DNA of 64,000 bases from a virus. The position numbers were made by a program, and so were the translations under genes. Every line of letters starts with the position of its first letter. The stretch's first letter is position 1. This document shows, one piece after another, positions 1 to 29,916 of the stretch. The notes under the pieces were generated by a model, which was not told where the DNA came from, ran no database searches, and saw only the letters and a list, made by a program, of their open reading frames with translations. Where the stretch lies: IMG/VR virus record IMGVR_UViG_3300028115_000004, positions 1 to 64,000 of that record. One strand, written 5' to 3'.

Positions 1-435
1 ATTGCTGAAATCTCTTCTCATGCGGGAAGACTAAATACCCTTGAGTCTGAGATGGATTCCAACGAGACCCTTCTTGGTGCTACTCTACTTTACAATGTAG
101 ATAATCCTTATAGTTGGGTTAAGTCTACTCCGGTTAAGACTGCAATCAATGATCTAGATAGTGCAGTTGGTACGTTATCTGATCTGGATGGAACCACATT
201 CGTATCTGCCTCAGACAAGGCAAATGTTGTGGCTGCACTCAACGTGCTTGCGGGTGACGTACAACAACTTCACGACAGCGCTGGAACACTTGATGCTAGA
301 ATCGGATCACTTGCAAACCTTGCTGCATTCTTTGATAGTGCGGGAGCGACTGCAAGTATTGTAAACGCCCTGAACCATATGGCAAGTAGAGTAGTGGATA
401 TCTATGATGAGAATGGCACTCTCTTAAATACTTAA
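1..435 (+). CDS. C-terminal part of a putative virion fibre/structural protein (5'-truncated by the window)
   Basis: Frame is open from base 1 to TAA at 433-435. Heptad-like A/L-rich helices; ends ...VVDIYDENGTLLNT, similar to the ...INVYNSAGVLQN end of the 1464-aa fibre. Confidence 0.6.
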   Translation: MAEISSHAGRLNTLESEMDSNETLLGATLLYNVDNPYSWVKSTPVKTAINDLDSAVGTLSDLDGTTFVSASDKANVVAALNVLAGDVQQLHDSAGTLDARIGSLANLAAFFDSAGATASIVNALNHMASRVVDIYDENGTLLNT

Positions 436-450
436 TAAAAGGACGGTGGA

Positions 451-2940
451 ATGCCAATTGCGAAAAGTAAACCGCTTAAACTCCAAAGTCCGGATCAAGG
501 CGATTTAAAGAGATTAAGTAGTACCGAAGAAAACTATCTGTCATATCTGGTAGGAACTCATCTTGTCGAAACAAGTAGCGATATCGGTGATATTACGCTT
601 ACTTCGACAGGCAATACTTCTATTGGCTCTCATTTAGATACTTTCTTTAATCAGGCGATAGGTACACACCCAGGCTCTTCGATCACTTCAGGAACAACGG
701 AGACCACCCTCTATCAGGTTGCGGGAACTGCATCCGAAACCGATTCGGACTTCCGTAAACCAGTCTCATACTATAATCCTCCGACAGACGGGCCTACCAG
801 TCTATTGGAGGGTGTGCATGAGATGGCAGATTCAGACATGAACCGTTTGGTTGACCGTCTCAACGGCCGTATCGCACTATCTGATTATATTGGTCAATAT
901 AAACTTGGTTCTTCTTCGCCTGGCGGAGACTACACCACACACATATCTAACGTGTTCTCTGATACTCTCAATAGTGGACTTGTTGCTAATTATAACATAT
1001 ATCGTAGAACAACGCAAGCACAACCTACCAGTATTTTAGACAGTGATGGTACTGTAACCGCACTCATGTCTATTAAGAGAAGTAGCGGCCGCACAGGAAC
1101 ATATCAGGGTGTTGAACGGATGACGAACCGACAGATGAAAATCTCGTTGGGTCAACGTGCGAAGACTAGACGTGCAATTGCAGATAGTATTGGGTCTTAT
1201 CAATTAAGGTCAAGTTCTCAGGGCGCACCTCTGACGGGTTCTTGGAGAGCCGTTGGTACTGCGACTGACACTAAACAAATCTTGGAAGAGACTGCATATA
1301 CTCGTACAAGAGTTTCGACTTACAATAGAGACCGAGCTTCAACCTATACTCGTGTATCGACACGCACCAGTACTAGAGACTTTGCTGGAGATTATGTAGG
1401 TAACTACTCAAGAACGTTTGAAGGTAATTATAACAGAACCTTCGTGGGTAATTATGTAGGCGACTTCATTGGTAACTACACCCGAACCAGACTCTCCATT
1501 TATAACAGAACCAGAACTTCTGCATACACTGGTGACTATGTTGGTAACTACACTAGACTCTTTGGTGGTAACTATACCAGAGGCTTCCTTGGAGAATATG
1601 CCAGAAACTTTGCGGGTGACTACACAGGCAATTACTCTAGAAACTTCGAAGGTAATTATTCTCGTGCTTTTACTCGGACTAGAGCTTCTAATTATACCAG
1701 AACGTCAACCAGAACGTCAACCCGCACAAGAACTTCTGCATATGCTGGTGATTTTGTTGGTAACTATGGTCGTTCTTTCACAGGGAATTACAGTCGTGGT
1801 TTTGTAGGAAACTATGGTAGAACCAGAGTATCCTCTTATTCCCGAAACTTTGCAGGAAACTTTTTAGGCGAATATACACGTACATCAACACGTACATCGA
1901 CAAGAGATTTCACCAGAGATGCGATTTACCCTGACTATACTCGCACAAGTGTCCGTGATGGGTACTACTTTAGATTTGGAAACCCCGATACTTGGTCTGA
2001 AGTTCAGACCTTTATCGGCCCTGCTTATTATACGGGTAACTATACATTATCTCCTAGCTTTATAGGTAATTATACTACAGTTAGGTCTTCTGCTGTACAG
2101 TATGGTAGACTTATATTTTATATACAAGGCCCAGATAACGTAGATGCCGAAGGATTTCCTATCGGCAATATGTACAGTCGTTTTTTGTACTATGCCAGAA
2201 CAGCATTCTACACTGGTAACTATACAAGAACCAGCATTACTTCTTTTACGGGTAACTACTTAGGAGACTATGCTGGTAACTTTTTAGGTGATTACACTCG
2301 TACATCAACACGTACAAGAACGTCCGGTTATAGTAGAAACTTCGTAGGTAATTATAGTAGAACCAGAAATTCAGCATACTCACGCACCAGAAACTCAACG
2401 TACACACGTACCTCAACCCGAACAAGTTCTACAGATTTTGTTGGAGACTTTGCGGGTAACTTTGTTGGTGATTATGCTAGGGACTTTGTTGGTAACTATT
2501 CACGATCATATACCAGAACAAGAGTCTCGGCCTACACCAGAAACTCTACTCGGACACGTCCCTCTACATATTCAAGAACAAGAGTCTCTGCCTATACTCG
2601 TGGACGGGCATCCGCATACTCAAGAACCAGAATTACTGACTACTCACGTGATTTTATCGGGGATTACTCTAGAGGTTTCTTGGGGAACTACACAAGAAAC
2701 TCACTAAATACCTTTAGTCGAGATCGTGTATCTGCATACTCCAGAAATAGAGACTCCACATATGCCAGAACGAGCACACGAACAAGGGTTTCCAGTTATG
2801 CAGGAGACTTTACTGGTGATTATGCTAGAACCTTTGTCGGAAATTATTCCAGAAGTTTCTTAGGAAACTACGTTGGAACCACGATTGGTTCTTCCACTTC
2901 AGTCATTGAAACGTACACCTTGTATGTTCGATATGCATAA
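451..2940 (+). CDS. Repetitive fibre protein A (829 aa): ~282-aa globular N-domain, self-complementary tetrapeptide arms, branched tip
   Basis: YxRx / FxGN / RxSx tetrapeptide repeats at 1297-1920 and 2257-2880; clear paralog of 2978-6451; lies in the virion gene region. Confidence 0.75.
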   Translation: MPIAKSKPLKLQSPDQGDLKRLSSTEENYLSYLVGTHLVETSSDIGDITLTSTGNTSIGSHLDTFFNQAIGTHPGSSITSGTTETTLYQVAGTASETDSDFRKPVSYYNPPTDGPTSLLEGVHEMADSDMNRLVDRLNGRIALSDYIGQYKLGSSSPGGDYTTHISNVFSDTLNSGLVANYNIYRRTTQAQPTSILDSDGTVTALMSIKRSSGRTGTYQGVERMTNRQMKISLGQRAKTRRAIADSIGSYQLRSSSQGAPLTGSWRAVGTATDTKQILEETAYTRTRVSTYNRDRASTYTRVSTRTSTRDFAGDYVGNYSRTFEGNYNRTFVGNYVGDFIGNYTRTRLSIYNRTRTSAYTGDYVGNYTRLFGGNYTRGFLGEYARNFAGDYTGNYSRNFEGNYSRAFTRTRASNYTRTSTRTSTRTRTSAYAGDFVGNYGRSFTGNYSRGFVGNYGRTRVSSYSRNFAGNFLGEYTRTSTRTSTRDFTRDAIYPDYTRTSVRDGYYFRFGNPDTWSEVQTFIGPAYYTGNYTLSPSFIGNYTTVRSSAVQYGRLIFYIQGPDNVDAEGFPIGNMYSRFLYYARTAFYTGNYTRTSITSFTGNYLGDYAGNFLGDYTRTSTRTRTSGYSRNFVGNYSRTRNSAYSRTRNSTYTRTSTRTSSTDFVGDFAGNFVGDYARDFVGNYSRSYTRTRVSAYTRNSTRTRPSTYSRTRVSAYTRGRASAYSRTRITDYSRDFIGDYSRGFLGNYTRNSLNTFSRDRVSAYSRNRDSTYARTSTRTRVSSYAGDFTGDYARTFVGNYSRSFLGNYVGTTIGSSTSVIETYTLYVRYA
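1297..2880 (+). repeat. 12-nt (tetrapeptide) period coding repeat; two arms of 52 units each around a 112-aa tip
   Basis: Parsed by hand: the N-arm (1297-1920) and C-arm (2257-2880) are each 624 nt. Confidence 0.9.
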
Positions 2941-2943: not shown

Positions 2944-2977
2944 GAGGAAGAACTAACGATATGGATGAGAAATTTTA

Positions 2978-8474: not shown

Positions 8475-8834
8475 ATGGCGACTTACGAAGAACTACTCAT
8501 AGATCAAGGCGCAGACGTTGCGATTGAGATCGAACTGGTTGAACAGGACGGGTCTAAGAAAGACCTGACTGGATTTTCTGCTGCCGCAAAAATGAAAAGA
8601 AGTTTCAACTCCACGGACAGTGATGAGATCGTAGATTTCACCGCTGTCATTGGCGATCCTGCTGCGGCCGGAGTTGTTGTCCTCTCCCTCACAAACACCC
8701 AAACCGATGCGCTGAATACTCGTGGAAGATATTTTTATGATGCAGAGATTTCTTTCCAAGACTCCGATGGTAATACTATTATCGAAAGAGTACTGGAAGG
8801 CAAAGTAAAAGTATCACCTTCTGTGACAAGGTAA
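8475..8834 (+). CDS. Small Ig-like virion structural protein (BppU-N-like)
   Basis: IDQGAD...DLTGFSAAAKMK...LSLTNTQT..L..GRYFYD.E...RVLEG.V.VSPSVTR pattern common in marine T4-like phages; late promoter upstream. Confidence 0.65.
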   Translation: MATYEELLIDQGADVAIEIELVEQDGSKKDLTGFSAAAKMKRSFNSTDSDEIVDFTAVIGDPAAAGVVVLSLTNTQTDALNTRGRYFYDAEISFQDSDGNTIIERVLEGKVKVSPSVTR

Positions 8835-8838
8835 ACAG

Positions 8839-9183
8839 ATGGCCATTCAAGTACAGAACGTATCACAGAAGCGGGTCTCAATTGTAAAACGTGTTACGGT
8901 TGGTAAACCTGTACGCAAGATTAATCCTGCCACAACGTCTATTGACAATTTGGCGGGAGTTGATACGTCCACAAAAGAGAATGGATATATTCTTGTTTAC
9001 AACTCTTCTACTGAAAAGTGGGAAGCCGTTGATAACCAAGCAGCTACCAATCTTGGTGGTATTAATGATGTTGAAGTGAGCACACGTGTGGATGGAAGTA
9101 TTCTCGTTTATAATGAAACTACTGAACAATGGGAATCAAAAATAGAACTAGAGAAACAAACAATTAACGGAGGCCAATACTGA
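8839..9183 (+). CDS. Small virion protein with two fibre-type repeats
   Basis: Two copies of L....DV......G.ILVYN..TE.WE; C-terminal INGGQY. Confidence 0.6.
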   Translation: MAIQVQNVSQKRVSIVKRVTVGKPVRKINPATTSIDNLAGVDTSTKENGYILVYNSSTEKWEAVDNQAATNLGGINDVEVSTRVDGSILVYNETTEQWESKIELEKQTINGGQY

Positions 9184-11195
9184 TGGCATCAATTATTAGA
9201 ATCAAACGAAGTGGGGTATCGGGCAATCCCACAACGCTAGCTCAGGGCGAGTTAGCGTATTCCTATTATAATGGTGCCGGCGGCGACAGACTCTACGTAG
9301 GTACTGGAATAGAAACCGCAGGAGATGCGGTAAATCATACAGTAATCGGTGGTAAATATTACGTCGATCTGTTGGGAGGACAGGGTGTTGCCCCATTCGG
9401 TACACTCACTGCAAACACCGCCCTAATTGCAGACTCCAACTCTAAGTTAGATCACTTAATCGTAGATAATATTGACCTGAATGGCAATACGATTTCCTCA
9501 ACAACTGCCAGTTTGGTACTCGCCCCGTCCAACGGAGTAGTTTCGGTTAATGGTTCTCGTATTGCGACTGTTGCAACGCCCATTGCAGACAGTGATGCGG
9601 TCAACAAACTCTACGTCGATACTCAGATTAGTAATGTAACATTTACTATTTCGGATGATGCGGCTGACTCGGACGAATTCTCTTCCGTTTCTGGTACTCT
9701 TAGATTTGCTGGTGGTACTGGTCTTACTTCTACAGTAACAGACGATACCGTAACATATGACATTGATGCAACTGGTGTGGCTGCAGGAACCTATGGTTCT
9801 ACAACTCAGATTCCGGTCTTCACGGTAAATGCACAAGGTCAACTTGATAGTGCGGGAACTGTACCTGTCGCAACAACTCTGACAATAAACTCCAGTCCTA
9901 TCAGCATCCTCGACTCGGATATCACCTTTGCAGCCACTGGTAACATCACTCTTGATGTCAATGAAGACACCAATACATTTACATTCAACCTAAGAAATGC
10001 AAGTACAGACAGTCATGGTGCTGCGTACTTCGAAGCCGATGACTTTGATGTTGTCTCTGGTTTCGTATCTTTGGAAGACACTGTTGTCAAAGGTGTAACT
10101 GCTGACACAGGAAGTGCAACTCCCGCTACTCATGACTTTACCATTGCGGGTACTTCGGCACAAGGGATCAATACTTCCGGTTCTGGTTCTACAATCACAA
10201 TCACCGCTGCAGACGCTGACTCTGATCAAAAGGGTGTTGCATCGTTCCGATCTGGTGACTTTGTTGCGACATCTGGTGATATCGAACTTGTGGACGAGGT
10301 ACTCAAGTCTCTACAGACAGACGATGGTACTGTAACACCTACTGGGCATTCTATCGCCATCTTCGGTGGAGAGGGAATCAATGTAACCCACTCCGGTGCG
10401 GTTATTACGGTTGCTGGTGAAGACGCTGATTCTGATAACAAGGGTGTTGCATCGTTTAACTCAAACGATTTCACAGTAACTAACGGTGATGTTGTTATTG
10501 CATCTGGTGGTGTGGATAACGCACAACTTGCCAATTCTACTGTAGTTGTCGGTAGCACAACCGTAAACCTTGGTGACACAATCACCGATGTTGTTGGTCT
10601 TACTTCTCTTGAAGTTGATAATATTCAGATCGACGGTAACACAATTAGTACTACCGATGTTAACGGCATCATGTATATTGATCCGAACCCTGTTGGGGAT
10701 TCGGGTGATTTGGTTATCCTTGGTAACCTCACGGTTCAGGGAACCACAACCACGATCAACTCGACTGAGTTGTCGGTCAATGATCTCAACATCACTCTTG
10801 CGGACAGTGCTGCAAATGCGGCCGCTGCAGATGGTGCGGGTATCACGGTTGCGGGTGCAAATGCGACTATCACATATGCAGCTGCTGGTGACGAATGGCA
10901 ATTTAACAAACCCCTCGACGTTACAGGTGCGATCACTGCATCGGGTAATGTTGAAGCAGGTTCTCTCACAATCAACGGTGTCACATTTGAACAACTGGTT
11001 GATAGTGAGGTTGCAAACCTTCTTACTGCGGGTGAGGGTATTGACCTCACATACAATGACGGTTCAAATGAACTGACCATTGCCGCAGAACTCGCCACGG
11101 TAACTAACCCTGGCGTGGCCTCCTTCGATTCGGATCAATTCACTGTAACATCTGGTGCGGTGACTGTATCTGAACTTGATGGTGGAACATACTAA
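9183..11195 (+). CDS. Tail fibre/virion structural protein (670 aa)
   Basis: N-terminal IIRIKRS...LAQGELAY (Mtd-N-like anchor), repeated GVASF.S.DF.V..G.V units, GNLTVQGTTTTINST motif, C-terminal DGGTY. Confidence 0.75.
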   Translation: MASIIRIKRSGVSGNPTTLAQGELAYSYYNGAGGDRLYVGTGIETAGDAVNHTVIGGKYYVDLLGGQGVAPFGTLTANTALIADSNSKLDHLIVDNIDLNGNTISSTTASLVLAPSNGVVSVNGSRIATVATPIADSDAVNKLYVDTQISNVTFTISDDAADSDEFSSVSGTLRFAGGTGLTSTVTDDTVTYDIDATGVAAGTYGSTTQIPVFTVNAQGQLDSAGTVPVATTLTINSSPISILDSDITFAATGNITLDVNEDTNTFTFNLRNASTDSHGAAYFEADDFDVVSGFVSLEDTVVKGVTADTGSATPATHDFTIAGTSAQGINTSGSGSTITITAADADSDQKGVASFRSGDFVATSGDIELVDEVLKSLQTDDGTVTPTGHSIAIFGGEGINVTHSGAVITVAGEDADSDNKGVASFNSNDFTVTNGDVVIASGGVDNAQLANSTVVVGSTTVNLGDTITDVVGLTSLEVDNIQIDGNTISTTDVNGIMYIDPNPVGDSGDLVILGNLTVQGTTTTINSTELSVNDLNITLADSAANAAAADGAGITVAGANATITYAAAGDEWQFNKPLDVTGAITASGNVEAGSLTINGVTFEQLVDSEVANLLTAGEGIDLTYNDGSNELTIAAELATVTNPGVASFDSDQFTVTSGAVTVSELDGGTY

Positions 11196-11277: not shown

Positions 11278-12645
11278 ATGTCAAACACATTATTTCGGCT
11301 TAAAAGAAGTTCTGTAGCCGGAAAGATACCGACAGTTGACCAACTAGAACTTGGTGAAGTTGCGATCAACACTTATGATGGACTTATGTTCATCAAAAAG
11401 AATGTTGACGGTACGGAATCGATTGTACAGATTGGTGAAGACACTGTAGAAGCTGCGGGATACGACGAATATTATTTCAGCGCAGACAGTGGCCAGACGG
11501 TATTTACCGGAAACGATTTTGACGGGGACACATTAGGATATTCCCCTGTACGTAGTAATGTCTATCTGAATGGTATTCTACTTGATTCAGACAAGGACTA
11601 TACTGGAACTGACGGATCGACAATAACACTTACCACGGGTGCGGACTCGGGTGACGTTATTCAGGTTCAGGCCTACACTTCCTCTCTCCAAATTGCGGAA
11701 TACAATTACACCTGTAGTGCAGCACAAACAACGTTTAGTGGTCTTGACGACAACAACAGATCACTTAACTATGCTGTGGATTATCTTGAAATATATCTGA
11801 ACGGTGTACTTCTTGATCCTAAAGTTGACTACACTGCGACTAGTGGGTCATCGGTTGTACTGACAGTACCCGCTGCCCTTAACGACTTTGTACAAATTTT
11901 CGTACTGCCTGAATTTAAGGCAGCTGCAACAAACTATCAAGCGTATCATTTTAGTTTCGTAGATAGTGGTGGTAAGACACAACTCGTTGGAAACGACAGT
12001 GACGAAAACCTACTCACATATTCTGTAGGTTCGTTAAAAGTATTCAACAACGGTGTATTGATGAGTCCGGATACGGACTACTCTGCCATCGACGGTGTTA
12101 GTGTTAACTTTACGGCTGGTCTGGATTCTTCTGATAAAGTAGAGATTCAGGCATACGCACAGAGTGCGGAAAGACCTTCTTACGAAGACGTGAAGGTCAC
12201 TGCAGGTATTTACGTTGGAGGAACTTCTAACGAATACCTGATCAAAGAATATAGAAACACTACCTTCACTCCCGTTATCGAAGGAACAACGACTGCGGGA
12301 ACTGCGACATATAGTGCACAGGTAGGTAGATATACAAGAATGGGTAACGTTGTCAACTTTACCCTACAACTCGTATGGAGTGGACATACGGGTACAGGTG
12401 ATTTGATTGTTACGGGACTTCCCGTGGCTTCTCTTGATGAGACTGGATTGGAGTATACTTTCTCAGTATCCTCAAACGGTCAATTGACTTATACAGATGG
12501 TGACACCTTATTGTCTAGAATGGAAAAGAATTCCACACAAATTATTCTTCAGACAGAAGATGGGGCAGGGAACTATACTGCTGTTGGAATGGCGTCAAAT
12601 AGTTCTGGTAGAGTTTTGATTACTGGTCAATACTTCATTGCCTAA
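11278..12645 (+). CDS. Fibre/baseplate-associated structural protein (455 aa) with three Ig-like repeats
   Basis: Mtd-N-like start (FRLKRSSVAGKIP..DQLELGEVAINTYDG); three repeats of Y.F.A..GQT.F.G.D...L.Y....VYLNG.LL...DY..... Confidence 0.7.
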   Translation: MSNTLFRLKRSSVAGKIPTVDQLELGEVAINTYDGLMFIKKNVDGTESIVQIGEDTVEAAGYDEYYFSADSGQTVFTGNDFDGDTLGYSPVRSNVYLNGILLDSDKDYTGTDGSTITLTTGADSGDVIQVQAYTSSLQIAEYNYTCSAAQTTFSGLDDNNRSLNYAVDYLEIYLNGVLLDPKVDYTATSGSSVVLTVPAALNDFVQIFVLPEFKAAATNYQAYHFSFVDSGGKTQLVGNDSDENLLTYSVGSLKVFNNGVLMSPDTDYSAIDGVSVNFTAGLDSSDKVEIQAYAQSAERPSYEDVKVTAGIYVGGTSNEYLIKEYRNTTFTPVIEGTTTAGTATYSAQVGRYTRMGNVVNFTLQLVWSGHTGTGDLIVTGLPVASLDETGLEYTFSVSSNGQLTYTDGDTLLSRMEKNSTQIILQTEDGAGNYTAVGMASNSSGRVLITGQYFIA

Positions 12646-12706: not shown

Positions 12707-15700
12707 ATGGCACAATCAAAAGCTAGATATCTGTCCAGTCTGTTGACAGCTTCTGGTTTCGTAAGAGACGATAGGTCACAATTAGCAGGTTCGGATGGTT
12801 TACTTGATTCACCGTCATTGCCTGCTATCTCCAACGCTATGTTGGTGCATACGGGTATCACAATTAATGATTATACCGTATCTTTGGGTGACAGTCAAGA
12901 CCTTACGACCGGAGACATCGCAGAACACGTAAATCTGTATTACACTACCGCACGGGCGGATAGTGATGCAAAGAATGCGATCAGTGGTGGCACTGGTCTC
13001 ACATATAACTCCACAACTGGTGTTATCGATATTACCAATACCGGAGTGGCCTCTGGTACGTATGGCAGTGCATCTCAAGTTCCCGTTTTCACTGTTAACG
13101 CACAAGGTCAGATCGATAGTATTGGTGTTGTAAATGTTGCCGGTGTAGACTCTTTTGGGTATAATAACGGTACAGGTGAGATGTCCATCGCCACTGCGGA
13201 TGGTGGTAACTTCACTGCAACCATAACTCTTAACCCCTTCACGTCTACTGATCTTGTTGAAGGTACAAACCTATACTACACGCAAAACAGAGTCGATTCC
13301 TCGTTCGACGCACGTCTTGCTACGAAAACAACAGACAATGTAACAGAAGGTACAAACAACCTTTACTGGACAAATGCACGATTTGACAGTTCTCTTGCGG
13401 GTGCATCTACAACTGATTTGAGTGAGGGCGAAAACCTCTATTACACTCAGGTAAGATTCGACTCTGCATTTGGTGATAAGACTACGGACGGTCTGACAGA
13501 AGGTTCTACTAATCGGTACTTTACAACTGCAAGAGTTCGTTCTTCTATCAGTGCAAGTGGAGACATCAATTACGACTCCGCTACGGGTGTAATCTCACTC
13601 ACAGTTGAGAACGTCTACAACAAGGCAAGTTTCGATTCCGACTTTAATGTCGCAATGGACTCTGCAACGACAAGTGATCTTGCAGAAGGATCAAACCTTT
13701 ATTACACGGACACACGTGCACGTAACGCCATTGGTCTTCAGGATCAAGGTGGTGACGGATCGTTAACATACGACTCTGCATCTGGTAGATTCTCGTACAC
13801 AGGCCCCTCTGCGACAGAGGCAAGGGCACACTTCTCTGCCGGTACTGGACTAACATTCAATTCTGGTGAGTTCTCTATTACAAACACAGGAGTCGCCGCA
13901 GGAACATACGGTTCTGCATCTCTGGTTCCTGTTGTTACCATCAATGCACAGGGTCAAGTAGACTCCATCGGAACAGTAAGTGTTGCGGGTGTCTCTAGTA
14001 TCAACTTTGACTCTGCGAATGGTAACTTCACGATTAACACCGCTGATGGTGGTGTATACGTTGAGACCATTACACTTGATCCTTACACAACGACAGACCT
14101 CACAGAAGGTACTAACCTTTACTATACACAAGCAAGGTTTGATACTGCATTTACTGGTAAGTCAACTACTGACCTTTCTGAAGGTAACAACTTATACTAC
14201 ACCACAGCACGTGCGGATAGTGATGCGAAAAACGCCATCTCCGTTGCTGATTCTGGTGGTGATGGTTCGTTGTCCTATAATGCAGGCACAGGTACAATCA
14301 CGTATACAGGGCCTTCTGCAACTGAAGTCCGTGCTCACTTCTCGGGTGGTACGGGTGTCACAATCACAAATGGCGTGGTTGCTGTTGGACAGTCAGTAGG
14401 TACAACCGATGACGTAACATTCGGTAAGGTCACTGCGGACTCTGCGGTTCTTGATGGTATCAACTTTAATGTTCTAACATCAAGACATTCAAATGCTGCT
14501 GGAACATTGTATTTTGACTCTGATCACCAAAAGGGTCTATCACTTGTTCTTGATACACAGAACAATCCAAACCCTGACGTAACTCTTAATATTGGACAAG
14601 AGATATTCCTCTATGTCCATAACTTAACTGGTGCTCAGATTGACAATGGTGATGCGGTATATATTTCGGGAACTGCACACGGTAAACACCCCCAAGTATC
14701 TCTTGCACGTGCAAATGCTTCTGCAACAGGACAACCTAGTGGTCTTGCGACTATGGACATTCCTGATGGTGCTCACGGTTGGGTAACAAGATACGGTATT
14801 GTCCGTGATGTAAACACTGGTAGTTTTGCTGCTGGTTCTACACTATATCTTTCCGCTGATTCCGCAGGTAAGTGGACATCAACCGAAGTTACTGTAGATA
14901 CTGGATATCCTTTCCATATTGGTCAGGTTCTGACTTCTGACTCTAGTGTTGGTACAATCCTTGTAGACGGATTCAGTGAACACTACGAATATCTACGTAT
15001 TGAAGATAGATTAAAAGTCTCAGGTAGACTTGAAGCTGACTCTGCGTCACTTCTGAATGTTCAATTTAATACTACACTGTTTGATTCACATCAACCGTAT
15101 AGTGAAGGTCTATTATACTACGATAACAAACATAAGACTCTAAACTATAATGATGATATCACTGGTATGGTTCACGAGGTTGGTACTCAAGAACACCAAC
15201 GTGTATTCAACAATACGGGTTCTTTGATCAGAAAAGGACAACCGTTATATTTCAGTGGTAACTATACATCCGGAAATCTTAATGTTCCGACTGTCGATCT
15301 CGCTGATGCGACAGATGTAAACGCTTATAACGCACAGGGTATTGCTGCACAGGACATTGCAGATAACTCCTACGGACACTGTTTGATCTCTGGACAACTT
15401 ACTAATGTAAACACATCCGGTCTATCAGATGGATCAAACTTCTTCGTGGGTCTTGGGCCTGGATTGACTCAAAACTCATCTCCGGTTTACCCCAACTTCC
15501 CAATGTGTTTGGGTTGGGTTGTGCAGTCTGGTGACTCTGACACTGGTATCCTGTTGGTCAATCAACAGAACCACTCTGTTAACAGTTTCCGTGTAACATC
15601 TTCTGCACACATTGGTACAAACCTACAGGTTGACGGTAACCTTACAGTATTGGGTTCTCAGACCACAGTAGGTACGTCTAACGTAACTCAGGGTGCACCT

Positions 15701-17101
15701 TTCTATCGTCTCAACGAAGGTGATGCGATTGGTGAGGCCAACACAGTATTTACAGGAACGGGTCTTGATGACGCATTCTTCGCTGGTCACTTCACTGGTA
15801 CTACTGCACAGACTTACTATGTCCGAATCGACGGTGTAGGAACTGGGCCTGGCGGTGTTGACACCTTTGAGGTTGCACTTAGTGACGATAGTGCGTTTGC
15901 ATCTCCGGTACTCACTAAAGAACCGATCACGGGTGAAGAGCAACTTATCCACTCTACCGATAATATTTCGGTTGACTTTGGTGCAACTACGGGTCACGAT
16001 AGTGGTGACAGATGGTCTGGTACTGCTGCTCCTGTAAACATTGACACTGGTTTCTTCACAAACCGAAACACTGGTACAAGTGGTGTTGGTTATACTCATA
16101 TGGGTATATTCTTCGATGTCACCGATGAGAAGTGGAAACTTCTTGATGCATATGACTCGACGCCCACTGGTTCAATCAACATGGCAGATTCTTCTGTCAG
16201 TCTCGCAACTTTGGTGGCGGGTGCGTTTGAGGGTAACTTAACTGGTGACTTAACAGGTAATGCGGATACCGCAACAGCCCTTGCAAATGGTAGAAACTTC
16301 TCTATCACGGGTGATGTGATCGCAAACGTTATCTCGTTCGATGGTACGGGTAACGTTGCACTTTCTGCTGCAATTGCTGCGGGATCGATTGTCAACGCAG
16401 ACATCAACGCAACAGCAAACATTACAGACACCAAACTCGCAACGATCTCGACTGCGGGTAAAGTACAGAACTCTGCAACGACTGCAACCGATGCGAACAC
16501 AGGTTCTACAATTGTCGAAAGGGATGCATCTGGTAACTTCGCTGCGGGTACGATTACTGCTGCTCTAACGGGTAACGTAACTGGTAATGTGACAGGTGAT
16601 GTGACAGGTGATGTCACAGGTACAGTTAGCAGCATTGCCAACCACAGTACGACTGACCTTAGTGAAGGTACTAATCTCTACTACACAACTTCACGTGCAG
16701 ACAGTGACTTTGATATCAGACTTGCAATCAAGTCTACAACAAATCTGTCTGAAGGTTCGAACCTGTATTACACTACTGCGAGAGTAAATACTGACTTTGA
16801 CACTAGACTTGCAACTAAGTCTACCACAAACTTGAGTGAAGGTACTAACCTTTACTACACAACTGCACGTGCGGACTCCGATGCGAAGAATGCAATCAGT
16901 GTAAGTGGTGACCTTGGTTACAATGCTGGAACGGGTGTGATCTCCTTTAGTGAGACATACTCGACTGCAACCGAACTGTTGACTGCAATCAAGACTGTGG
17001 ATGGTGCAACCTCTGGATTGGATGCTGACCTCCTTGACGGTCAACACGGTTCTTACTACAGAATCAACGTGTACAACTCTGCGGGCGTCTTGCAGAACTA
17101 A
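12707..17101 (+). CDS. Long tail fibre-like protein (1464 aa)
   Basis: About 11 copies of T[DN]LSEGxNLYYTxAR, GNVTGDVTG tracts, C-terminal SGLDADLLDGQHGSYY; T/S/G-rich. Confidence 0.8.
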   Translation: MAQSKARYLSSLLTASGFVRDDRSQLAGSDGLLDSPSLPAISNAMLVHTGITINDYTVSLGDSQDLTTGDIAEHVNLYYTTARADSDAKNAISGGTGLTYNSTTGVIDITNTGVASGTYGSASQVPVFTVNAQGQIDSIGVVNVAGVDSFGYNNGTGEMSIATADGGNFTATITLNPFTSTDLVEGTNLYYTQNRVDSSFDARLATKTTDNVTEGTNNLYWTNARFDSSLAGASTTDLSEGENLYYTQVRFDSAFGDKTTDGLTEGSTNRYFTTARVRSSISASGDINYDSATGVISLTVENVYNKASFDSDFNVAMDSATTSDLAEGSNLYYTDTRARNAIGLQDQGGDGSLTYDSASGRFSYTGPSATEARAHFSAGTGLTFNSGEFSITNTGVAAGTYGSASLVPVVTINAQGQVDSIGTVSVAGVSSINFDSANGNFTINTADGGVYVETITLDPYTTTDLTEGTNLYYTQARFDTAFTGKSTTDLSEGNNLYYTTARADSDAKNAISVADSGGDGSLSYNAGTGTITYTGPSATEVRAHFSGGTGVTITNGVVAVGQSVGTTDDVTFGKVTADSAVLDGINFNVLTSRHSNAAGTLYFDSDHQKGLSLVLDTQNNPNPDVTLNIGQEIFLYVHNLTGAQIDNGDAVYISGTAHGKHPQVSLARANASATGQPSGLATMDIPDGAHGWVTRYGIVRDVNTGSFAAGSTLYLSADSAGKWTSTEVTVDTGYPFHIGQVLTSDSSVGTILVDGFSEHYEYLRIEDRLKVSGRLEADSASLLNVQFNTTLFDSHQPYSEGLLYYDNKHKTLNYNDDITGMVHEVGTQEHQRVFNNTGSLIRKGQPLYFSGNYTSGNLNVPTVDLADATDVNAYNAQGIAAQDIADNSYGHCLISGQLTNVNTSGLSDGSNFFVGLGPGLTQNSSPVYPNFPMCLGWVVQSGDSDTGILLVNQQNHSVNSFRVTSSAHIGTNLQVDGNLTVLGSQTTVGTSNVTQGAPFYRLNEGDAIGEANTVFTGTGLDDAFFAGHFTGTTAQTYYVRIDGVGTGPGGVDTFEVALSDDSAFASPVLTKEPITGEEQLIHSTDNISVDFGATTGHDSGDRWSGTAAPVNIDTGFFTNRNTGTSGVGYTHMGIFFDVTDEKWKLLDAYDSTPTGSINMADSSVSLATLVAGAFEGNLTGDLTGNADTATALANGRNFSITGDVIANVISFDGTGNVALSAAIAAGSIVNADINATANITDTKLATISTAGKVQNSATTATDANTGSTIVERDASGNFAAGTITAALTGNVTGNVTGDVTGDVTGTVSSIANHSTTDLSEGTNLYYTTSRADSDFDIRLAIKSTTNLSEGSNLYYTTARVNTDFDTRLATKSTTNLSEGTNLYYTTARADSDAKNAISVSGDLGYNAGTGVISFSETYSTATELLTAIKTVDGATSGLDADLLDGQHGSYYRINVYNSAGVLQN

Positions 17102-17881: not shown

Positions 17882-19576
17882 ATGGCAACAAATCCGTATA
17901 TCAGTCAATCGGTAAAATCTGAACAGAACTTATACGAAGACATAGTAATTGAGTCTCTCAAGTTCTACGGACAGGATGTGTATTACATCCCCCGTGAGAT
18001 TGTCAACAAAGACCCCATCTTCCTAGACGATGTACCTTCACGTTTCAGTGATGCGTACAAGATCGAAATGTATATTGAGAACACCGAAGGTTTCGACGGT
18101 GAGGGTGACTTGTTCACTAAATTCGGTATTGAGTTACGTGACCAAGCTACCTTCGTAGTTGCCCGTAGACGTTGGAAACATCTAATCGGTAACTACTTGG
18201 ATGAGAAGAAATTCCGTCCACGTGAAGGAGATGTTATCTTCCTTCCCATGTCTAACTCTATCTTCCAGATTCAAAAGGTGGAGACAGAGACTCCGTTCTA
18301 TCAACTCAGCAATCTACCTACGTTCAGACTTCAGGCAGAACTCTTCGAATATAACGACGAAGACTTTGATACTGGTATCGATCAGGTTGATGAGATTGAA
18401 TATGAAGGTGCGTATCAGTATAAGATTACTATGCGACCTAATGATACCACAGGTTCTACCGCTGGGGCAACATCAACAATTAATGAACAAGGTACGATAA
18501 CTTCACTCACCTTGACCAACGCTGGCCGTGGATATGAGACGGCACCAACACTTAGTTACTCTGACTTCACTGAAGCGGAGACGAAGAAGTTTGGTCTGAA
18601 CTCTATTAACATGAACAACGCACAAGGTAGAGAGGGAGAATTCCTTTACACCAGTAACAACGGTGTTGCCGAGGTGTTCCTCCTTCTCAATAATTTCCCG
18701 ACTACCCAAGGTTCTTTGTTCCTACATGGTGAAGATTCTGCACAGTATATGTGGGGTGTCGATGCTAGTGGTGGTTTGGTCTATCAAACAATAGGAATGA
18801 GTTCTCCCAAGGTTGTGCCTGGCGCAACTGTTGCACGTGGTGCATGGCAGCACATTGCCATTGCACAAGACAGTGACAATCTGTCTGTCTATTATAATGG
18901 TGTGAAGGTTCTGGATTCGGATGCGCCTGTCACCGCACAGTTTGCGGGTTCAAGTGGGTTCTCTGTTGGTGCAACATCTGCACGTACATTCAACGGTGTG
19001 GATTGGGAAGCTACAAGAGGATACCTCGACGAAATCAGATTCCGTTCGGGTGTGAGAAACACTCTTATCGGTGACTCTGATATGACTGTACCGACTGAAG
19101 CATATGATTCAGATGCATCTACTATTCTTCTTGAACATGCAGACGGTACTGCGCCTACTATCACAACAACAATTGATGCAACCACAGGATCGGTCACAGG
19201 GTTTACTATTACGGATGGTGGTTTCCTCTATCAAGAGGCTCCGACTATTACGATCACACCGCCTGTGACAGGAGGTGACTTTGTGATTGGAGAGATTGTT
19301 ACTCAAACCAACTCTACATACACAATGAAGGGCGAAGTCACAGACTGGTCAGATTCAGATAGAGTTTTACAATTAGCACACTCTGGTGCAACGGATGGAG
19401 ATTTCCACGAGTTTGGAGTCAACCGCAAGATCGTTGGTGCGAATGCTAATTGGGTTCCTTCATTGGTAGAAGAACTACAGGAGATTCAAGTCTCTGCACA
19501 GAATGTCACCTTCAATAACTTCGAATCTGACTTCTTAGACTTCTCCGAATCAAATCCCTTTGGAGACATGGAATAA
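17882..19576 (+). CDS. gp14: Neck protein gp14 with an inserted LamG/concanavalin-like domain
   Basis: ESLKFYGQDVYYIPRE, GDLFTKFGIE, RPREGD, C-terminal DFSESNPFG; insert carries WQHIAI...VYYNG...GYLDEIRF. Confidence 0.9.
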   Translation: MATNPYISQSVKSEQNLYEDIVIESLKFYGQDVYYIPREIVNKDPIFLDDVPSRFSDAYKIEMYIENTEGFDGEGDLFTKFGIELRDQATFVVARRRWKHLIGNYLDEKKFRPREGDVIFLPMSNSIFQIQKVETETPFYQLSNLPTFRLQAELFEYNDEDFDTGIDQVDEIEYEGAYQYKITMRPNDTTGSTAGATSTINEQGTITSLTLTNAGRGYETAPTLSYSDFTEAETKKFGLNSINMNNAQGREGEFLYTSNNGVAEVFLLLNNFPTTQGSLFLHGEDSAQYMWGVDASGGLVYQTIGMSSPKVVPGATVARGAWQHIAIAQDSDNLSVYYNGVKVLDSDAPVTAQFAGSSGFSVGATSARTFNGVDWEATRGYLDEIRFRSGVRNTLIGDSDMTVPTEAYDSDASTILLEHADGTAPTITTTIDATTGSVTGFTITDGGFLYQEAPTITITPPVTGGDFVIGEIVTQTNSTYTMKGEVTDWSDSDRVLQLAHSGATDGDFHEFGVNRKIVGANANWVPSLVEELQEIQVSAQNVTFNNFESDFLDFSESNPFGDME

Positions 19577-20346
19577 TGTTTGGTAATTATTTTTATCACA
19601 AGAGAGTGAGAACTGCGGTCTCCGTATTTGGTTCCCTATTCAATGACTTACACATTCTAAGACAGAACGCTGCTGGTGAGGTAATCTCACAGGTCAAAGT
19701 TCCATTGTCCTATGCACCTCGTAGAAACTTCATCGAACGTCTCAATGAGATGGCGAAGGGAGAGGATGCAGAACGTAGAGTGGCCATTAAACTGCCTCGT
19801 ATGTCCTTTGAGGTTACGAACATGCAGTATGACCCACAGAGACAGTTACCGAAAGTAAATCGTTTTGAAAAAGAGTATGAGAGTGACAACAACAAACGTT
19901 ATAAGATGTACACTGCGACTCCTTATGATATCACATTCCAGTTGAGTATATACGCAAAGAGTCAAGACGATGCACTTCAGCTTGTAGAACAGATTCTACC
20001 TTACTTTGCACCTCAGTACACAGTCACAGTAAAACCTTTTTCGGACATCCCCGACATCAAGGAAGATATACCTATCAGTCTTGATACGGTGACGTTCCAA
20101 GACGCCTATGATGGTGCGATTGAACAGAGACGTACTATCGTGTACGATCTCTCATTCACCATGAAGATCAACTTCTATGGGCCTAACCTAGAGTACGGTA
20201 TCATCCGTGAGGTTAATAACAACCTATATATTATGGGTGATAGTGATACTTTCTATACAAACATTAATGTAACACCGACACCCGTAGGTGTTAGTCCTGA
20301 CAGTGACTATGGATTCTTGATACAATATTTGGATAGTTCTGCATGA
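19576..20346 (+). CDS. gp15: Tail sheath stabiliser/terminator gp15
   Basis: MFGNYFYH, KVPLSYAP, LPRMSFE, EQILPYF. Confidence 0.93.
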   Translation: MFGNYFYHKRVRTAVSVFGSLFNDLHILRQNAAGEVISQVKVPLSYAPRRNFIERLNEMAKGEDAERRVAIKLPRMSFEVTNMQYDPQRQLPKVNRFEKEYESDNNKRYKMYTATPYDITFQLSIYAKSQDDALQLVEQILPYFAPQYTVTVKPFSDIPDIKEDIPISLDTVTFQDAYDGAIEQRRTIVYDLSFTMKINFYGPNLEYGIIREVNNNLYIMGDSDTFYTNINVTPTPVGVSPDSDYGFLIQYLDSSA

Positions 20347-22361: not shown

Positions 22362-24155
22362 ATGGCATTACTATCACCGTCTCTGTCTCCTGCGATTACG
22401 GTCAAAGAGATCGATTTGTCGGGTGTTGCACCCAACGTATCGACTTCTGTTGGCGCATTCGTCGGGAACTTTCGTTGGGGCCCCGTGAACTCTCGTACAT
22501 TAGTCGCAGACGAGTCTGGACTGGTGAGAGTGTTTGCCGCACCTGACGAAGACAACGCTGTGGATTTCCACAGTGCTTCGTACTTTTTAAAGTACACCAA
22601 CTCGCTTTACATTGTTCGTGGTAACAATGGAGGCATTAACGCACACAGTGCAGTAACTAAACTTACTGGCGATTCCGCAGTAGTTGAAAACCAAGAAGAT
22701 TGGGAAACTACAGTTAAATCTTCTGTAAACGCTCGAACACTGGCAACAGGTTCTTTCATTGCAAAATATCCAGGCTCTCTGGGTAACGCATTGACTGTAT
22801 CTTTCTGTCCTGCCGCTGATTCAGATGGTGCAAACTACTTCAACGCATGGTCTTACAAAGGATCATTCGACCGTGCCCCCACAACTTCTGCCTATGCAAC
22901 CGACAACGGTGCATCGAAGGACGAAGTTCACGTAGCAGTTATTGACCGTACAGGTTCTTTCACAGGTACGCCTGGCAGTGTGTTGGAAACATTCCCTCAC
23001 CTGTCTGCTGCTAAGGGCGCAGTAACTCCGGATGGATCACCTAACTACATCCAAGAAGTACTCAACAGTCGTTCTGAGTATGTGTGGTGTGGTCAGTTCG
23101 ATAACGATTCCGCTTTCGGTGCTTCTTACGAAAACATTGGTCAAAACTGGGGTAAGACACCTTCGGTTGACTCTGCAGTAGATTACTCTACAGGTACTTC
23201 TGCATGGACTAATGATGTTTCTAAGATCAAGCTCGGTGGTGGTGTTAACAGTTCTGATTTGACCAACGGTCAGGTTACAACTGGTTTCGATCTATTCGAC
23301 GACACCGAACAGATTCAGGTAGACTTCCTGATTCCTCTTCAGTCTGCTAACGACTCGGATGGGGTTACAATCGCTAATTACTGTAACGCAATCGCTAAAG
23401 ATCGCAAAGACTGTGTGGTTCCTGTGTCTCCTCCTAGAGAAGACATTGTTGGTATTCCTACAGCCACGGCTAATACAAACGCAATTTCGTTTGCAAATTC
23501 TTTGTCGAACAGTTCTTACCTGATCGTAGATAACAACTACCTCAAGGTATTCGATAAGTACAACGATAACTACATCTACATCCCTGCTAACTCTAGTACT
23601 GCGGGTATCATGGCTGCAACAGACTTTGTTGCTGCACCTTGGTACTCTCCTGCTGGTCAGAGACGTGGTAACTATCTTGCAATTACAGATATTGCCCACT
23701 CTCCGAACAAAACGCAGAGAGACTCACTGTACAAGGCTAACGTCAACCCAATCTCCAATATTCCTGGCGTGGGTATCGTCCTTTATGGTGATAAGACACA
23801 CGAACTCAGACCTTCTGCATTTGACAGAATCAACGTTCGTAGATTGTTCATCGGTATTGAGAAGTCTATCGCAGCTGCTGCGAAGAACATTCTCTTCGAA
23901 TTCAACGACGAGTTTACTCGTGCAGAATTCGTGAATGTCGTTGAACCTCTGCTTCGTGAGATTAGAGGTCGAAGAGGTATCACTGACTTTAAGGTGGTTT
24001 GTGACGAAACAAACAACACCCCTGCAGTGGTTGACAGAAACGAATTTGTCGCTTCTATCTTCATCAAGCCTGCCCGTTCTATTAACTTCGTGACGTTGAA
24101 CTTCGTCGCAGTTAGAACTGGTGTGGACTTTGAAGAAGTAGTTGGCGCAGTTTAA
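22362..24155 (+). CDS. gp18: Tail sheath protein
   Basis: SPAITVKEID, FRWGP, PWYSPAG, SAFDRINVRRLF, FEFNDEFTR, IKPARSINF. Confidence 0.96.
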   Translation: MALLSPSLSPAITVKEIDLSGVAPNVSTSVGAFVGNFRWGPVNSRTLVADESGLVRVFAAPDEDNAVDFHSASYFLKYTNSLYIVRGNNGGINAHSAVTKLTGDSAVVENQEDWETTVKSSVNARTLATGSFIAKYPGSLGNALTVSFCPAADSDGANYFNAWSYKGSFDRAPTTSAYATDNGASKDEVHVAVIDRTGSFTGTPGSVLETFPHLSAAKGAVTPDGSPNYIQEVLNSRSEYVWCGQFDNDSAFGASYENIGQNWGKTPSVDSAVDYSTGTSAWTNDVSKIKLGGGVNSSDLTNGQVTTGFDLFDDTEQIQVDFLIPLQSANDSDGVTIANYCNAIAKDRKDCVVPVSPPREDIVGIPTATANTNAISFANSLSNSSYLIVDNNYLKVFDKYNDNYIYIPANSSTAGIMAATDFVAAPWYSPAGQRRGNYLAITDIAHSPNKTQRDSLYKANVNPISNIPGVGIVLYGDKTHELRPSAFDRINVRRLFIGIEKSIAAAAKNILFEFNDEFTRAEFVNVVEPLLREIRGRRGITDFKVVCDETNNTPAVVDRNEFVASIFIKPARSINFVTLNFVAVRTGVDFEEVVGAV

Positions 24156-28573: not shown

Positions 28574-28584
28574 GGAAATCTATT

Positions 28585-29916
28585 ATGAACTCTTACGATC
28601 ATTTGATTGAGAAGTGGTCTCCCGTTCTGAACGAAAGTTCTGCTGGCGAAATCACCGATTATCACAGAAAAGCAGTTACAGCTGCAATCTTGGAAAACCA
28701 AGAACGTGCAATGCATGAAGAGCGTGCACAACATGCCGGTTTCGGTTCTTTGACCGAAGCAGCGCCTGGTGGCGCTAACACAGGTTCTATCGGTACATGG
28801 GATCCGATTCTGATCTCTCTCGTTAGACGTGCTATGCCTAACCTCATGGCATACGATGTGTGTGGTGTTCAACCGATGTCTGGCCCGACTGGTCTTATCT
28901 TCGCTATGAAGGCAAGATACCAAGGTGGTTCTACTTCTAACCGTGAAGCACTGTTCAACGAAGCTGAAACTCAGTACTCTGGCGACAGCGGTGGTACACA
29001 TGATTCCGACAACGTGTCTGGTTTCAACGGTATCACTCCTACTGGTGACTCTGCTGACGCACTTCGTGCAACTGCTCTTGCTGCAGGCGGTATGCCTACT
29101 GCAGACGCTGAAGCACTTGGTTCGACAGGTGGTTCTTCATTCAACGAGATGGGCTTCACCATCGAAAAGGCAACCGTGACTGCGAAGTCTCGTGCGCTGA
29201 AAGCCGAGTACAGTCTTGAACTCGCACAAGACCTGAAAGCGATTCATGGTCTTGACGCTGAGACTGAACTTGCAAACATTCTCTCTACGGAAATCCTTGC
29301 GGAAATCAACCGTGAAGTTATCCGTACTATCAACAGCCAGGCGAAGACAGGTGCTCTTCAGGCGAACGTTACCAAGCAAGGTATCTTCGATCTGAGCTCT
29401 GACGCTGACGGTCGTTGGTCTGCAGAGAAGTTCAAGGGTCTTGTTGTTCAGCTTGACCGTGAAGCAAACGTAATTGCAAAAGAGACAAGACGTGGTAAGG
29501 GTAACGTTATCGTGTGCTCGTCTGACGTTGCAACTGCACTGTCTGCTTCTGGCATGCTCGACTACACTCCTGCAATGTCTACCAACCTTCAGGTTGACGA
29601 CACTGGTAACACCTTCGCTGGTGTACTGAACGGTCGTATGCGTGTGTACATCGATCCTTATGCACAGACTGACTACGTGACAGTTGGCTACAAGGGTACA
29701 AACGCTTATGACGCAGGTGTGTTCTACTGCCCCTACGTTCCTCTGCAGATGGTTAAGGCAGTTGGTGAGGACACGTTCCAGCCGAAGATCGGATTCAAGA
29801 CTCGCTACGGCATGGCTTCGAACCCCTTCGTTGGTTCAACTCCTGCTGACGGTCTTGCTGCTGCTAAGAGCAACCCGTATTACAGAATCTTCCGTGTGGA
29901 CAACATCCTCGCCTAA
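28585..29916 (+). CDS. gp23: Major capsid protein
   Basis: LVRRAMPNL, GVQPMSGPTGLIFAM, AKSRALKAEYS.ELAQDLKAIHGLDAE, FQPKIGFKTRYG. Confidence 0.98.
   Translation: MNSYDHLIEKWSPVLNESSAGEITDYHRKAVTAAILENQERAMHEERAQHAGFGSLTEAAPGGANTGSIGTWDPILISLVRRAMPNLMAYDVCGVQPMSGPTGLIFAMKARYQGGSTSNREALFNEAETQYSGDSGGTHDSDNVSGFNGITPTGDSADALRATALAAGGMPTADAEALGSTGGSSFNEMGFTIEKATVTAKSRALKAEYSLELAQDLKAIHGLDAETELANILSTEILAEINREVIRTINSQAKTGALQANVTKQGIFDLSSDADGRWSAEKFKGLVVQLDREANVIAKETRRGKGNVIVCSSDVATALSASGMLDYTPAMSTNLQVDDTGNTFAGVLNGRMRVYIDPYAQTDYVTVGYKGTNAYDAGVFYCPYVPLQMVKAVGEDTFQPKIGFKTRYGMASNPFVGSTPADGLAAAKSNPYYRIFRVDNILA

Follow-up and report, generated by a model that had tools for sequence, protein, structure and literature searches.

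An Asp-Ser-small residue motif on outward-facing virion proteins of an uncultured marine T4-like myovirus, a possible acceptor for serine modification

The Maf enzymes place sugars on Ser and Thr residues of flagellin in the cytoplasm (PMC4065374), and their substrates are the surface-exposed Ser/Thr residues of a filament-forming protein that is modified before its assembly (PMC4065374, PMC3426422). O-glycosylation in the Bacteroidota takes place at the motif D-(S/T)-(A/I/L/V/M/T/S/G/F/C), which is easily gained or lost by single mutations (PMC8729774), and the SdgA and SdgB enzymes transfer N-acetylglucosamine onto the Ser residues of the staphylococcal Ser-Asp repeat adhesins and protect them against proteolysis (PMC3794999, PMC8561734). 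Virion glycosylation is known in mycobacteriophages from work cited in PMC12801897. The present analysis concerns a three-residue motif, Asp-Ser followed by Ala, Asp, Gly or Ser (DS[ADGS]; DS and DT denote Asp-Ser and Asp-Thr), in the virion proteins encoded by the first 64,000 nucleotides (hereafter the window) of the IMG/VR record IMGVR_UViG_3300028115_000004, an uncultured marine T4-like myovirus. The motif is a strongly supported signal in this phage and its close relatives and is discussed here as a possible acceptor for a phage-encoded modification of serine.

With the Bacteroidota sequon the phage motif shares an Asp that precedes the hydroxy residue, and its DSA, DSG and DSS forms fit the extended motif. 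Thr is used there as freely as Ser, whereas DT before a small residue is depleted here to 0.44-0.5 of expectation; Asp at position +1, which is excluded there, is the commonest residue here. The parallel with this sequon, proposed in an initial annotation made from the sequence alone, is therefore a poor fit. In the Bacteroidota it is exported proteins that are modified, outside the cytoplasm, and tailed-phage virion proteins assemble in the cytoplasm. The staphylococcal system is alike in having an Asp-flanked serine (D-S-D) on an extended surface protein together with dedicated glycosyltransferases, but there the serines lie in a long tandem (SD)n tract, and the sites here are isolated in folded modules. 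The likeness to the mycobacteriophages is that phage glycosyltransferases decorate the phage's own virion proteins, although hosts and phages differ; the targets described by Freeman et al. in 2023 are said to be the capsid and the C-terminal extensions of the tail tube, and not a D-S motif on fibres. No published description of the phage motif was found.

The DS[ADGS] motif and its distribution

The window is the beginning of a single contig of 115,859 bp, rated ~65% complete by CheckV, and the closest deposited genome is Phage C48C1 (OQ984149, Kyanoviridae), with ~70% nucleotide identity across the large terminase subunit (TerL) and the sheath. A fibre cluster at 0-17.1 kb precedes the structural genes at 17.1-29.9 kb, where gp13, gp14, gp15, the small terminase subunit (TerS), TerL, sheath, tube, portal and major capsid protein were identified by PHROG and Pfam scans; the contig is without a baseplate module and its start falls inside a fibre-like gene. 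Genes were called as the longest open reading frames (ORFs), and each protein was shuffled to obtain the DS count expected from its composition. For the tripeptides, this phage and six related records, which are not independent of one another, were pooled and all 400 a-b-[ADGS] classes were compared with expected values calculated as products of the per-protein residue frequencies. G- and L-numbers (such as G008, G012 and L014) label the related records and loci that were compared.

The motif extends over three residues. Four fibres carry 40 DS[ADGS] where 8.4 are expected, and DS before any other residue is not enriched in them (11 vs 13.6); a hydrophobic or aromatic residue commonly precedes the pair ([AFLVIYM]DS, 42 vs 8.4), the four-residue form reaching 33 vs 3.3. 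Throughout gp13-gp23, A/D/G/S follows 18 of the 22 DS pairs against a background of 0.28 (p 3e-7). The initial annotation had proposed the extended motif for presumed exterior proteins, and this is borne out: A/D/G/S follows 58/73 DS pairs in the virion proteins compared with 15/82 in the non-structural proteins (Fisher odds ratio 17, p 7e-15). DS[ADGS] is the top outlier of the 400 classes both in the pooled core virion proteins (58 vs 18.4, an observed-to-expected ratio (O/E) of 3.15, with the next class at z 4.8) and in the pooled fibres (305 vs 58.4, O/E 5.2), and the NS, ES, DA, DG and DD classes are unremarkable among them. DT[ADGS] is depleted in the same records (O/E 0.44 in core proteins and 0.50 in fibres), as is DS[ADGS] in the non-structural proteins (15 vs 24.1, or 0.62). 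The +1 residue is Asp in 15/50 fibre sites and 25/54 core sites and Ala in 14 and 19, respectively, and I/L/V/M/T at this position show no enrichment. The reversed pair SD is not enriched (24 vs 22.4), no (SD)n tract occurs and the DS sites stand isolated. They are encoded by ten different hexamers, which places the signal at the protein level, and their codon use resembles that of the rest of the genes, so that a cause at the DNA level was rejected.

The plain dipeptide is more narrowly distributed. The hand counts of the initial annotation proved exact (the 1464-aa fibre with 29 DS and only 10 DT; 12, 6 and 4 DS in the 670-aa fibre, the 455-aa protein and the fragment at the contig start, 6 in gp14, 3 in gp15, 6 in gp18, 3 in gp23 and 0-3 in each of TerL, portal, gp13 and gp19), and after the composition correction the enrichment stands for the two fibres and the fragment and is not significant for the remainder. 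The 1464-aa fibre has 11.6 DS expected from shuffles (z 5.6), with the excess marked in residues 1-610 (DS 18 vs 5.6; DT 2 vs 7.0); the corresponding expectations are 5.9 for the 670-aa fibre (shuffles, p ~0.01) and 1.25 for the 127-aa fragment (p 0.02). The 455-aa protein (6 vs 3.3) is not significant alone, nor are gp13-gp23 pooled, with 22 DS vs 16.7-20.5 (z 1.4 against 16.7) and 25 SD vs 16.7. The Thr-rich fibres (829 and 1157 aa) show no DS excess (11 vs 11.4, O/E 0.9-1.0) and thus serve as a negative control, and the non-structural proteins of the whole genome carry 86 DS vs 103. DS is the top dipeptide of the DS-rich fibre family (51 vs 22.3, z 6.9), and the plain-DS excess belongs to this one family and not to exterior proteins in general. 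Glu-Ser is nearly absent from the fibre proteins (window 52-17101; 1 vs 11.2, z -3.2), a mirror of the DS excess.

The motif is clade-specific, being present in relatives with at least 71% TerL identity and not in cyanophages, roseophages or further T4-like contigs whose fibres are homologous. DS is flat in the homologous fibres Syn9 gp108 (9 vs 10.3) and P-RSM4_113 (13 vs 15.2), in the roseophage fibres CRP-207 gp46 (2 vs 3.7) and CRP-6 gp61 (1 vs 3.8), and in the long tail fibre (5 vs 7.8) and VrlC (9 vs 15.9) of the glycosyltransferase-rich cyanophage S-SCSM1; the same fibre modules read TA, NS or SA in place of DS in CRP-207. Among 80 IMG/VR loci with homologous fibres, ~24 have DS at O/E 1.9-3.8 with DT at 0.1-0.7, and the rest have DS at 0-1.5. 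A DS excess as a general property of fibres or exterior proteins was rejected on these flat cases (the Thr-rich fibres, Syn9, P-RSM4, S-SCSM1, CRP-6, CRP-207 and 56/80 IMG/VR fibres). The fraction of DS followed by A/D/G/S in virion proteins is 0.73-0.93 in this phage, G011, G012 and G014-G017, 0.57-0.76 in G002 and 0.09-0.44 in G006, G007, G009, S-SCSM1, Syn9 and P-RSM4, compared with 0.18 in the non-structural proteins of this phage; over the virion proteins of this phage and the six related records it is 0.78-0.82. A gp8-like wedge protein (phrog_438) co-varies with the fibres (DS 43 vs 17.8 in DS-rich records and 11 vs 9.7 in DS-poor ones); the gp6-like and gp5-like proteins, TerL and portal do not. 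Phage C48C1 is intermediate, its fibres being not significantly DS-rich (largest 20 vs 13.6) and its DS flat overall, with DS[AD] at 38 vs 19.3 (z 4.5) in its structural proteins. In the TerL tree the motif-bearing records, C48C1 and the pair G014/G008 form one well-supported clade with its base not resolved, and the motif therefore has one origin as far as is visible.

Among close homologues both residues of the sites are conserved better than other Asp and Ser residues, at 0.89 vs 0.73 for Asp (p 0.016) and 0.85 vs 0.66 for Ser (p 0.0016). The 120 closest fibre homologues carry 3680 DS vs 1869 expected with DT at O/E 0.49, and the core-protein sites fall in variable or inserted stretches where distant orthologs have gaps or other residues.

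Candidate enzymes of the late glycan island

A late glycan island with glycosyltransferase and tailoring genes (Table 1) lies in the same genome outside the window, and the motif co-occurs with it. The island also holds the gene of a conserved 215-aa protein, with which the motif likewise co-occurs; the protein belongs to a tight family (512 clusters, 62-96% identity) and has no Pfam match and no sequence match in PDB. The AlphaFold2 (AF2) model of the protein (predicted local distance difference test, pLDDT, 88) matches the Magnetospirillum Maf 5mu5 best among 48,161 chains (Z 10.4, root mean square deviation 4.0 over 171 aa), followed by Campylobacter Cst-I 2p56 (Z 9.6), the MptE-like HPPK 8sd5 (Z 8.7) and GT29 sialyltransferases (Z 7-8); Foldseek on the model alone is weak (E ~0.03). 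The protein is thus predicted to share the catalytic-domain fold of Maf enzymes such as Aeromonas caviae Maf1 and 5mu5, and Maf modifies its filament protein while this is still unassembled in the cytoplasm, which by analogy would be the situation of a phage fibre. It differs in its size, 215 aa being a third of the multi-domain Maf (~600 aa), whose catalytic core is flanked by domains for substrate binding, and in having no flagellin-binding domains, and Maf also uses Thr. A scan of the genome proteins for GNGPS returned nothing, and PDB sequence and profile searches of two island proteins likewise found nothing.

The 215-aa gene is present in G001, G011-G017 and C48C1, the last being the sole match among the phage records (the other 50,696 are negative), and the complete genomes G009, G021 and G025, all DS-neutral, do not have it. 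A homologue with 21% identity occurs in a phage lineage whose terminase and portal are not of the T4 type. The gene is followed immediately downstream by fibre/baseplate-like genes, and DS[ADGS] accounts there for 14/17 (L263) and 6/12 (L264) of the DS pairs.

The DS-bearing clade carries phage glycosyltransferase genes that its DS-neutral relatives do not. The GT8 gene has 387 relatives in IMG/VR and none among 50,697 phage records, and DS richness is seen in all six long GT8 contigs on which a fibre is also present (O/E 1.66-3.76). GT8 as the sole correlate is weakened because C48C1, which is without GT8 and GT25, keeps the 215-aa gene and the DS[AD] excess, and because G014 has GT8 and few sites. 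S-SCSM1 is rich in glycosyltransferases and yet without the motif, and thus such richness alone does not give the motif. A presence profile (in this genome, G011 and G012, and in G001 where covered, and not in the complete C48C1 and G009) returns four glycosyltransferase genes, a cytidylyltransferase-like gene and a block of five genes. The cytidylyltransferase-like gene (36201-36635; 144 aa, PF01467 E 3e-13, heptose adenylyltransferase-like by phrog_7878) is also found in G008 and is the only one of its kind seen; it is of the PF01467 and not of the CMP-sugar synthetase type, no search having been aimed at the synthesis of pseudaminic, legionaminic or neuraminic acids. Maf enzymes characteristically transfer a CMP-activated nonulosonic acid whose synthesis genes are found close by. 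The five small genes (genome 65715-68458, L003:1715-4458) encode proteins of 288, 165, 124, 163 and 165 aa with no Pfam or PHROG assignment.

Acceptor tag, structural element or metal site

D-S-[A/D/G], with Ser rarely at +1, may be a tag peculiar to this lineage that acts as the acceptor for a phage-encoded modification of serine; it would mark those virion surfaces that face outward, namely the fibres, the insertion of gp14, the tail of gp15, the variable mid-region of gp18, a loop of gp23 and, in relatives, the gp8-like wedge. This is the reading that we adopt, tentatively and as one that falls a little short of probable. The phage enzyme would modify the DS serine in the cytoplasm, before or during assembly and probably by O-glycosylation; the best candidate would be the 215-aa protein of Maf/sialyltransferase fold, and the island GT8, GT25, carbamoyltransferase, radical-SAM and methyltransferase proteins could build or tailor the glycan. 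Placed at helix N-caps and beta-hairpin turns of the shaft modules, the fibre motif would be exposed and structurally tolerant, and duplication of the modules would multiply its count. The analysis establishes the statistics of the motif, how far it is clade-specific and conserved, the predicted fold of the candidate enzyme and their co-occurrence; that the serine is modified at all, by which enzyme and with what group, we infer. The acceptor interpretation of the initial annotation is retained in so far as the motif is real, outward-facing, clade-specific and conserved in a clade that has glycosyltransferase genes; the part that tied it to a glycosyltransferase/oxygenase pair adjacent to the fibres is not.

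Several observations weigh against an acceptor role. The 215-aa protein covers the Maf catalytic core only (residues 273-508 of the 632-aa chain), PF01973 (MptE-like) is without a match across the whole genome at E <= 0.1, and the protein has GNGDH where its relatives have GNGPS, the canonical form being carried by more distant relatives. To our knowledge, no D-S acceptor motif has been described for Maf enzymes. G014 possesses the Maf-like gene along with GT8, yet has few DS sites, and the support from the second lineage rests on 29 sites that were examined post hoc. The single origin of the clade means that any clade-specific gene would co-occur with the motif, and co-occurrence within the clade is therefore phylogenetically confounded. 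Among close homologues DS is replaced by DA 12 times and by DT 3 times, and the hydrophobic residues at -1 and +4 around the fibre DS sites resemble, in sequence and predicted structure, a helix N-cap with a hydrophobic staple.

The last two points lead to a purely structural explanation, in which Asp-Ser-small starts helix N-caps or beta-turns, the counts arise from module duplication and common descent, and the serine stays bare; we consider it credible but rather doubtful. The fibre DS sites occupy fixed positions of repeated modules (EGxNLYYTxxRx-DS, VPVxTxNAQGQx-DS-xG, [YF]-DS-[AS]xG and A-DS-DxKGVASF), and module duplication therefore inflates the counts; in the 120 closest homologues DS is found in 143/165 NAQGQxDS and 519/1081 NLYYTxxRxDS modules. 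A 2640-aa fibre of G012, a 155-kb IMG/VR contig, consists of LDSAxVxxLIDSAYIQxR repeats (L235:11081-19001) and is the most extreme case seen (DS 109 vs 29, DT 6 vs 20.4). The sequence patterns [hydrophobic]-D-S-A/D-x-[hydrophobic] and [YF]-D-S-A-x-G are those of the hydrophobic staple and the Asx-turn hairpin, and the AF2 model of fibre residues 1-600 (moderate confidence, pLDDT 59, with domains at 70-82) agrees, placing the Asp just ahead of predicted helices at sites 85, 310 and 504 and as the final strand residue before an S-A-x-G turn at 290, 356 and 435, while sites 137 and 419 come immediately after the NAQGQ turn. Foldseek of the fibre N-terminus model, at this pLDDT of 59, gave no significant match. 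Where this phage has Asp, DS-poor orthologs have T, S, N or D, residues that likewise form caps or turns, and Ser is replaced by Ala more commonly than by Thr, a beta-branched residue that is expected to be disfavoured at helix-cap and turn positions.

Such capping and turn motifs are universal, however, and predict neither clade specificity nor Ser specificity nor a restriction to the virion. The structural explanation leaves unexplained why gp15, gp18, gp23 and the gp14 insertion show the +1 preference in this clade only, why Ser is 85% conserved inside the clade and varies freely in DS-poor orthologs, why the motif is if anything depleted (0.62) in non-structural proteins and why it stands beside a distant Maf-like gene in another lineage. 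The make-up of the fibre modules is insufficient as the sole cause because the core proteins gp14, gp15, gp18 and gp23 share the +1 preference. An acceptor tag would account for the virion restriction, for the clade specificity in orthologous core proteins, for the Ser-specific conservation, for the mild depletion in non-structural proteins and for the association with a Maf-fold enzyme, including the hint from the second lineage. The tag and the structural element are not exclusive, since exposed caps and turns are the easiest places to accommodate an acceptor motif.

A more specific form of the acceptor hypothesis is that this abundant, uncultured marine T4-like clade has its own sequon-directed O-glycosylation, in which a minimal Maf-like transferase would read D-S-[A/D/G] in the cytoplasm on the fibres, the baseplate and further exposed surfaces of the virion, a late island of 10-17 kb would build and tailor the glycan, the particle would be sugar-coated and a related enzyme-motif pair would exist in at least one other lineage; we put this forward with considerable reserve, as possible and on balance doubtful.

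Divalent-cation (Ca2+/Mg2+) sites that stabilise the fibres and surface domains in seawater are a very unlikely explanation. DSD is the commonest form of the motif, D.D.D is mildly enriched (5 vs 1.5) and the gp14 insertion resembles the ConA/Laminin-G fold, in which Ca2+ binding is frequent. DSA is nevertheless as common as DSD, and Ala cannot ligate metal; the sites are scattered singly and not clustered in sequence; and D-x-D shows no excess once Ser is left out of the middle position (D[^S]D, 14 vs 16.9), and the EF-hand-like pattern D.[DN].[DN]G occurs 0 times (0.5 expected). The last two results remove Ca2+ as a general explanation, including the Ca2+-binding DxD loops that the initial annotation had named as an alternative.

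The three-gene block of helical, GT-A-like and oxygenase-like proteins inside the fibre cluster (6523-8406) is most improbable as the modifying system: it is present in 9 of the DS-rich loci with upstream DNA covered and a language-model lead points to nucleotide-diphospho-sugar transferase for its 242-aa protein (score 0.97), but the 232-aa protein has a weak lead to 2-oxoglutarate oxygenases (0.87), none of the three has a Pfam or PHROG match to support its assignment, and in related contigs the block is always accompanied by the Thr-rich fibres, themselves without a motif excess. L014/G008 carries it at 64-67% identity with two flat fibres (DS 5 vs 4.8 and 6 vs 5.6), its few DS still tending to DS[ADGS] (0.50 in core proteins); C48C1 carries it with a weak residual motif; and L012, with fibre DS at 33 vs 13.1, is without it in 9 kb upstream. 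On these distributions the link of the block to the motif, and with it the proposed co-occurrence with glycosyltransferase/oxygenase genes beside the fibres, was rejected.

If the serines are modified, phages of Gram-negative marine bacteria would for the first time have a defined acceptor motif for the glycosylation of their virions, and the 215-aa protein would be a Maf-type protein glycosyltransferase of minimal size that works in the cytoplasm and whose sequon can be read. The large glycosyltransferase islands of marine myoviruses would then be read differently, the clusters of marine cyanomyoviruses being at present taken for genes that modify the host surface or DNA (PMC12801897), with consequences for host recognition, for the stability of the particle and for its resistance to proteases and grazers; a sequence rule would also become available to predict from metagenomes which sites are exposed and modified. 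Should the serines be unmodified, a three-residue capping motif at five to ten times expectation in the fibres of one lineage is a caution for sequon hunting.

Motif-carrying proteins and neighbouring genes

Table 1. Positions of the motif carriers, of the block beside the fibres and of the glycan-related genes, numbered from the start of the contig
Feature	Position	Strand	Remark
Fibre-like protein, C-terminal end	1..435	+	truncated by contig start, ORF open 5'; three of the 4 DS are DSA
Two Thr-rich fibres, 829 and 1157 aa	451..6451	+	DS[ADGS] 5/11
Three-gene block, 157, 242 and 232 aa	6523..8406	+	initially annotated as chaperone, glycosyltransferase and oxygenase; glycosyltransferase-like/oxygenase-like pair at 6983-8406
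119-aa LtfC-like small fibre protein or assembly factor	8475..8834	+	phrog_1084/3304; weak PF23926
670-aa fibre	9183..11195	+	12 DS, including repeated A-DS-D-x-K-G-V-A-S-F modules
455-aa fibre-like protein	11278..12645	+	two beta-rich repeats; 6 DS, every +1 residue G, D or S
1464-aa tail fibre	12707..17101	+	main motif carrier; directly upstream of gp13
gp14 neck protein	17882..19576	+	ConA/Laminin-G-like insertion holds all 6 DS, all DSA or DSD
gp15	19576..20346	+	3 DS[DS] in C-terminal tail
gp18 tail sheath	22362..24155	+	5/6 DS are DSA or DSD, in variable stretches, residues 104-331
gp23 major capsid protein, variable loop	28984..29055	+	GDSGG, HDSDN, GDSAD
Carbamoyltransferase	93439-94950
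Radical SAM-SPASM	96180-97151
GT8	97371-98156
Cupin	100228-100968
Methyltransferase	102711-103346
GT25	103946-104971
GT25	105221-105874
Weak GT8-like	106390-107136
215-aa Maf-like protein	108590-109237		starts MRVNVLGNGD

The 1464-aa fibre matches phrog_697 (E 5e-49) and has no Pfam match and no PDB match by sequence or profile search. It has tblastn matches in 253 phage records and more than 4800 homologues, and it is syntenic with Syn9 gp108 and P-RSM4_113, which likewise lie upstream of gp13; the family, shared by T4-like cyanophages and pelagiphages, is annotated in cyanophage records as 'YadA domain-containing structural protein'. Seven of its DS pairs are in EGxNLYYTxxRxDS, two in VPVxTxNAQGQxDSxG and three in [YF]DS[AS]xG hairpins. 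The L014 ortholog of the 670-aa fibre (52% identical) keeps 4/12 sites, the others reading DA, TD, TA, SA, TV, TY and similar. A 501-aa homologue of the contig-start fragment in G004 has DS at 6 vs 2.3, and the 119-aa LtfC-like family stands at 13 vs 6.3 where the records are DS-rich and at 3 vs 3.0 where they are DS-poor.

The sites of the gp14 insertion are retained in G011 and G016 and mostly lost in G014 and G008. In gp15 a DSDY sequence is conserved across the clade, including C48C1, and is absent from G006, G007 and G009. The gp18 positions are gaps or other residues in distant orthologs, and the variable mid-region that holds them is taken by us to be the outer domains, by analogy with T4 gp18. 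For the gp23 loop, G008 keeps 2/3 sites, and G006, G009 and C48C1 have NS, DA, TD or AD.

The Thr-rich fibres are marked by extreme dipeptides of their own, namely TR (118 vs 39.8), GN (67 vs 12.5), NY (57 vs 13.6) and GD (43 vs 10.7). A separate observation concerns CRP-207, whose coat protein (L006:34145-35200, minus strand) has 7 DS vs 2.4 (p 0.004), with flat fibres and no Maf-like gene by tblastn. Two minus-strand genes (30028-31368 and 31485-32615) sit between gp23 and the replication genes; one of them matches DruA (Druantia; PF14236, E 3e-10), and its 446-aa neighbour has no Pfam match and 4 DS vs 1.9. The 232-aa protein of the three-gene block, oxygenase-like only by a weak language-model lead, is one of three paralogs of ~220-230 aa (7708-8406, 33207-33857 and 60297-60965) that match the same ORFs in relatives and occur in C48C1, G008, G001, G004 and G005.

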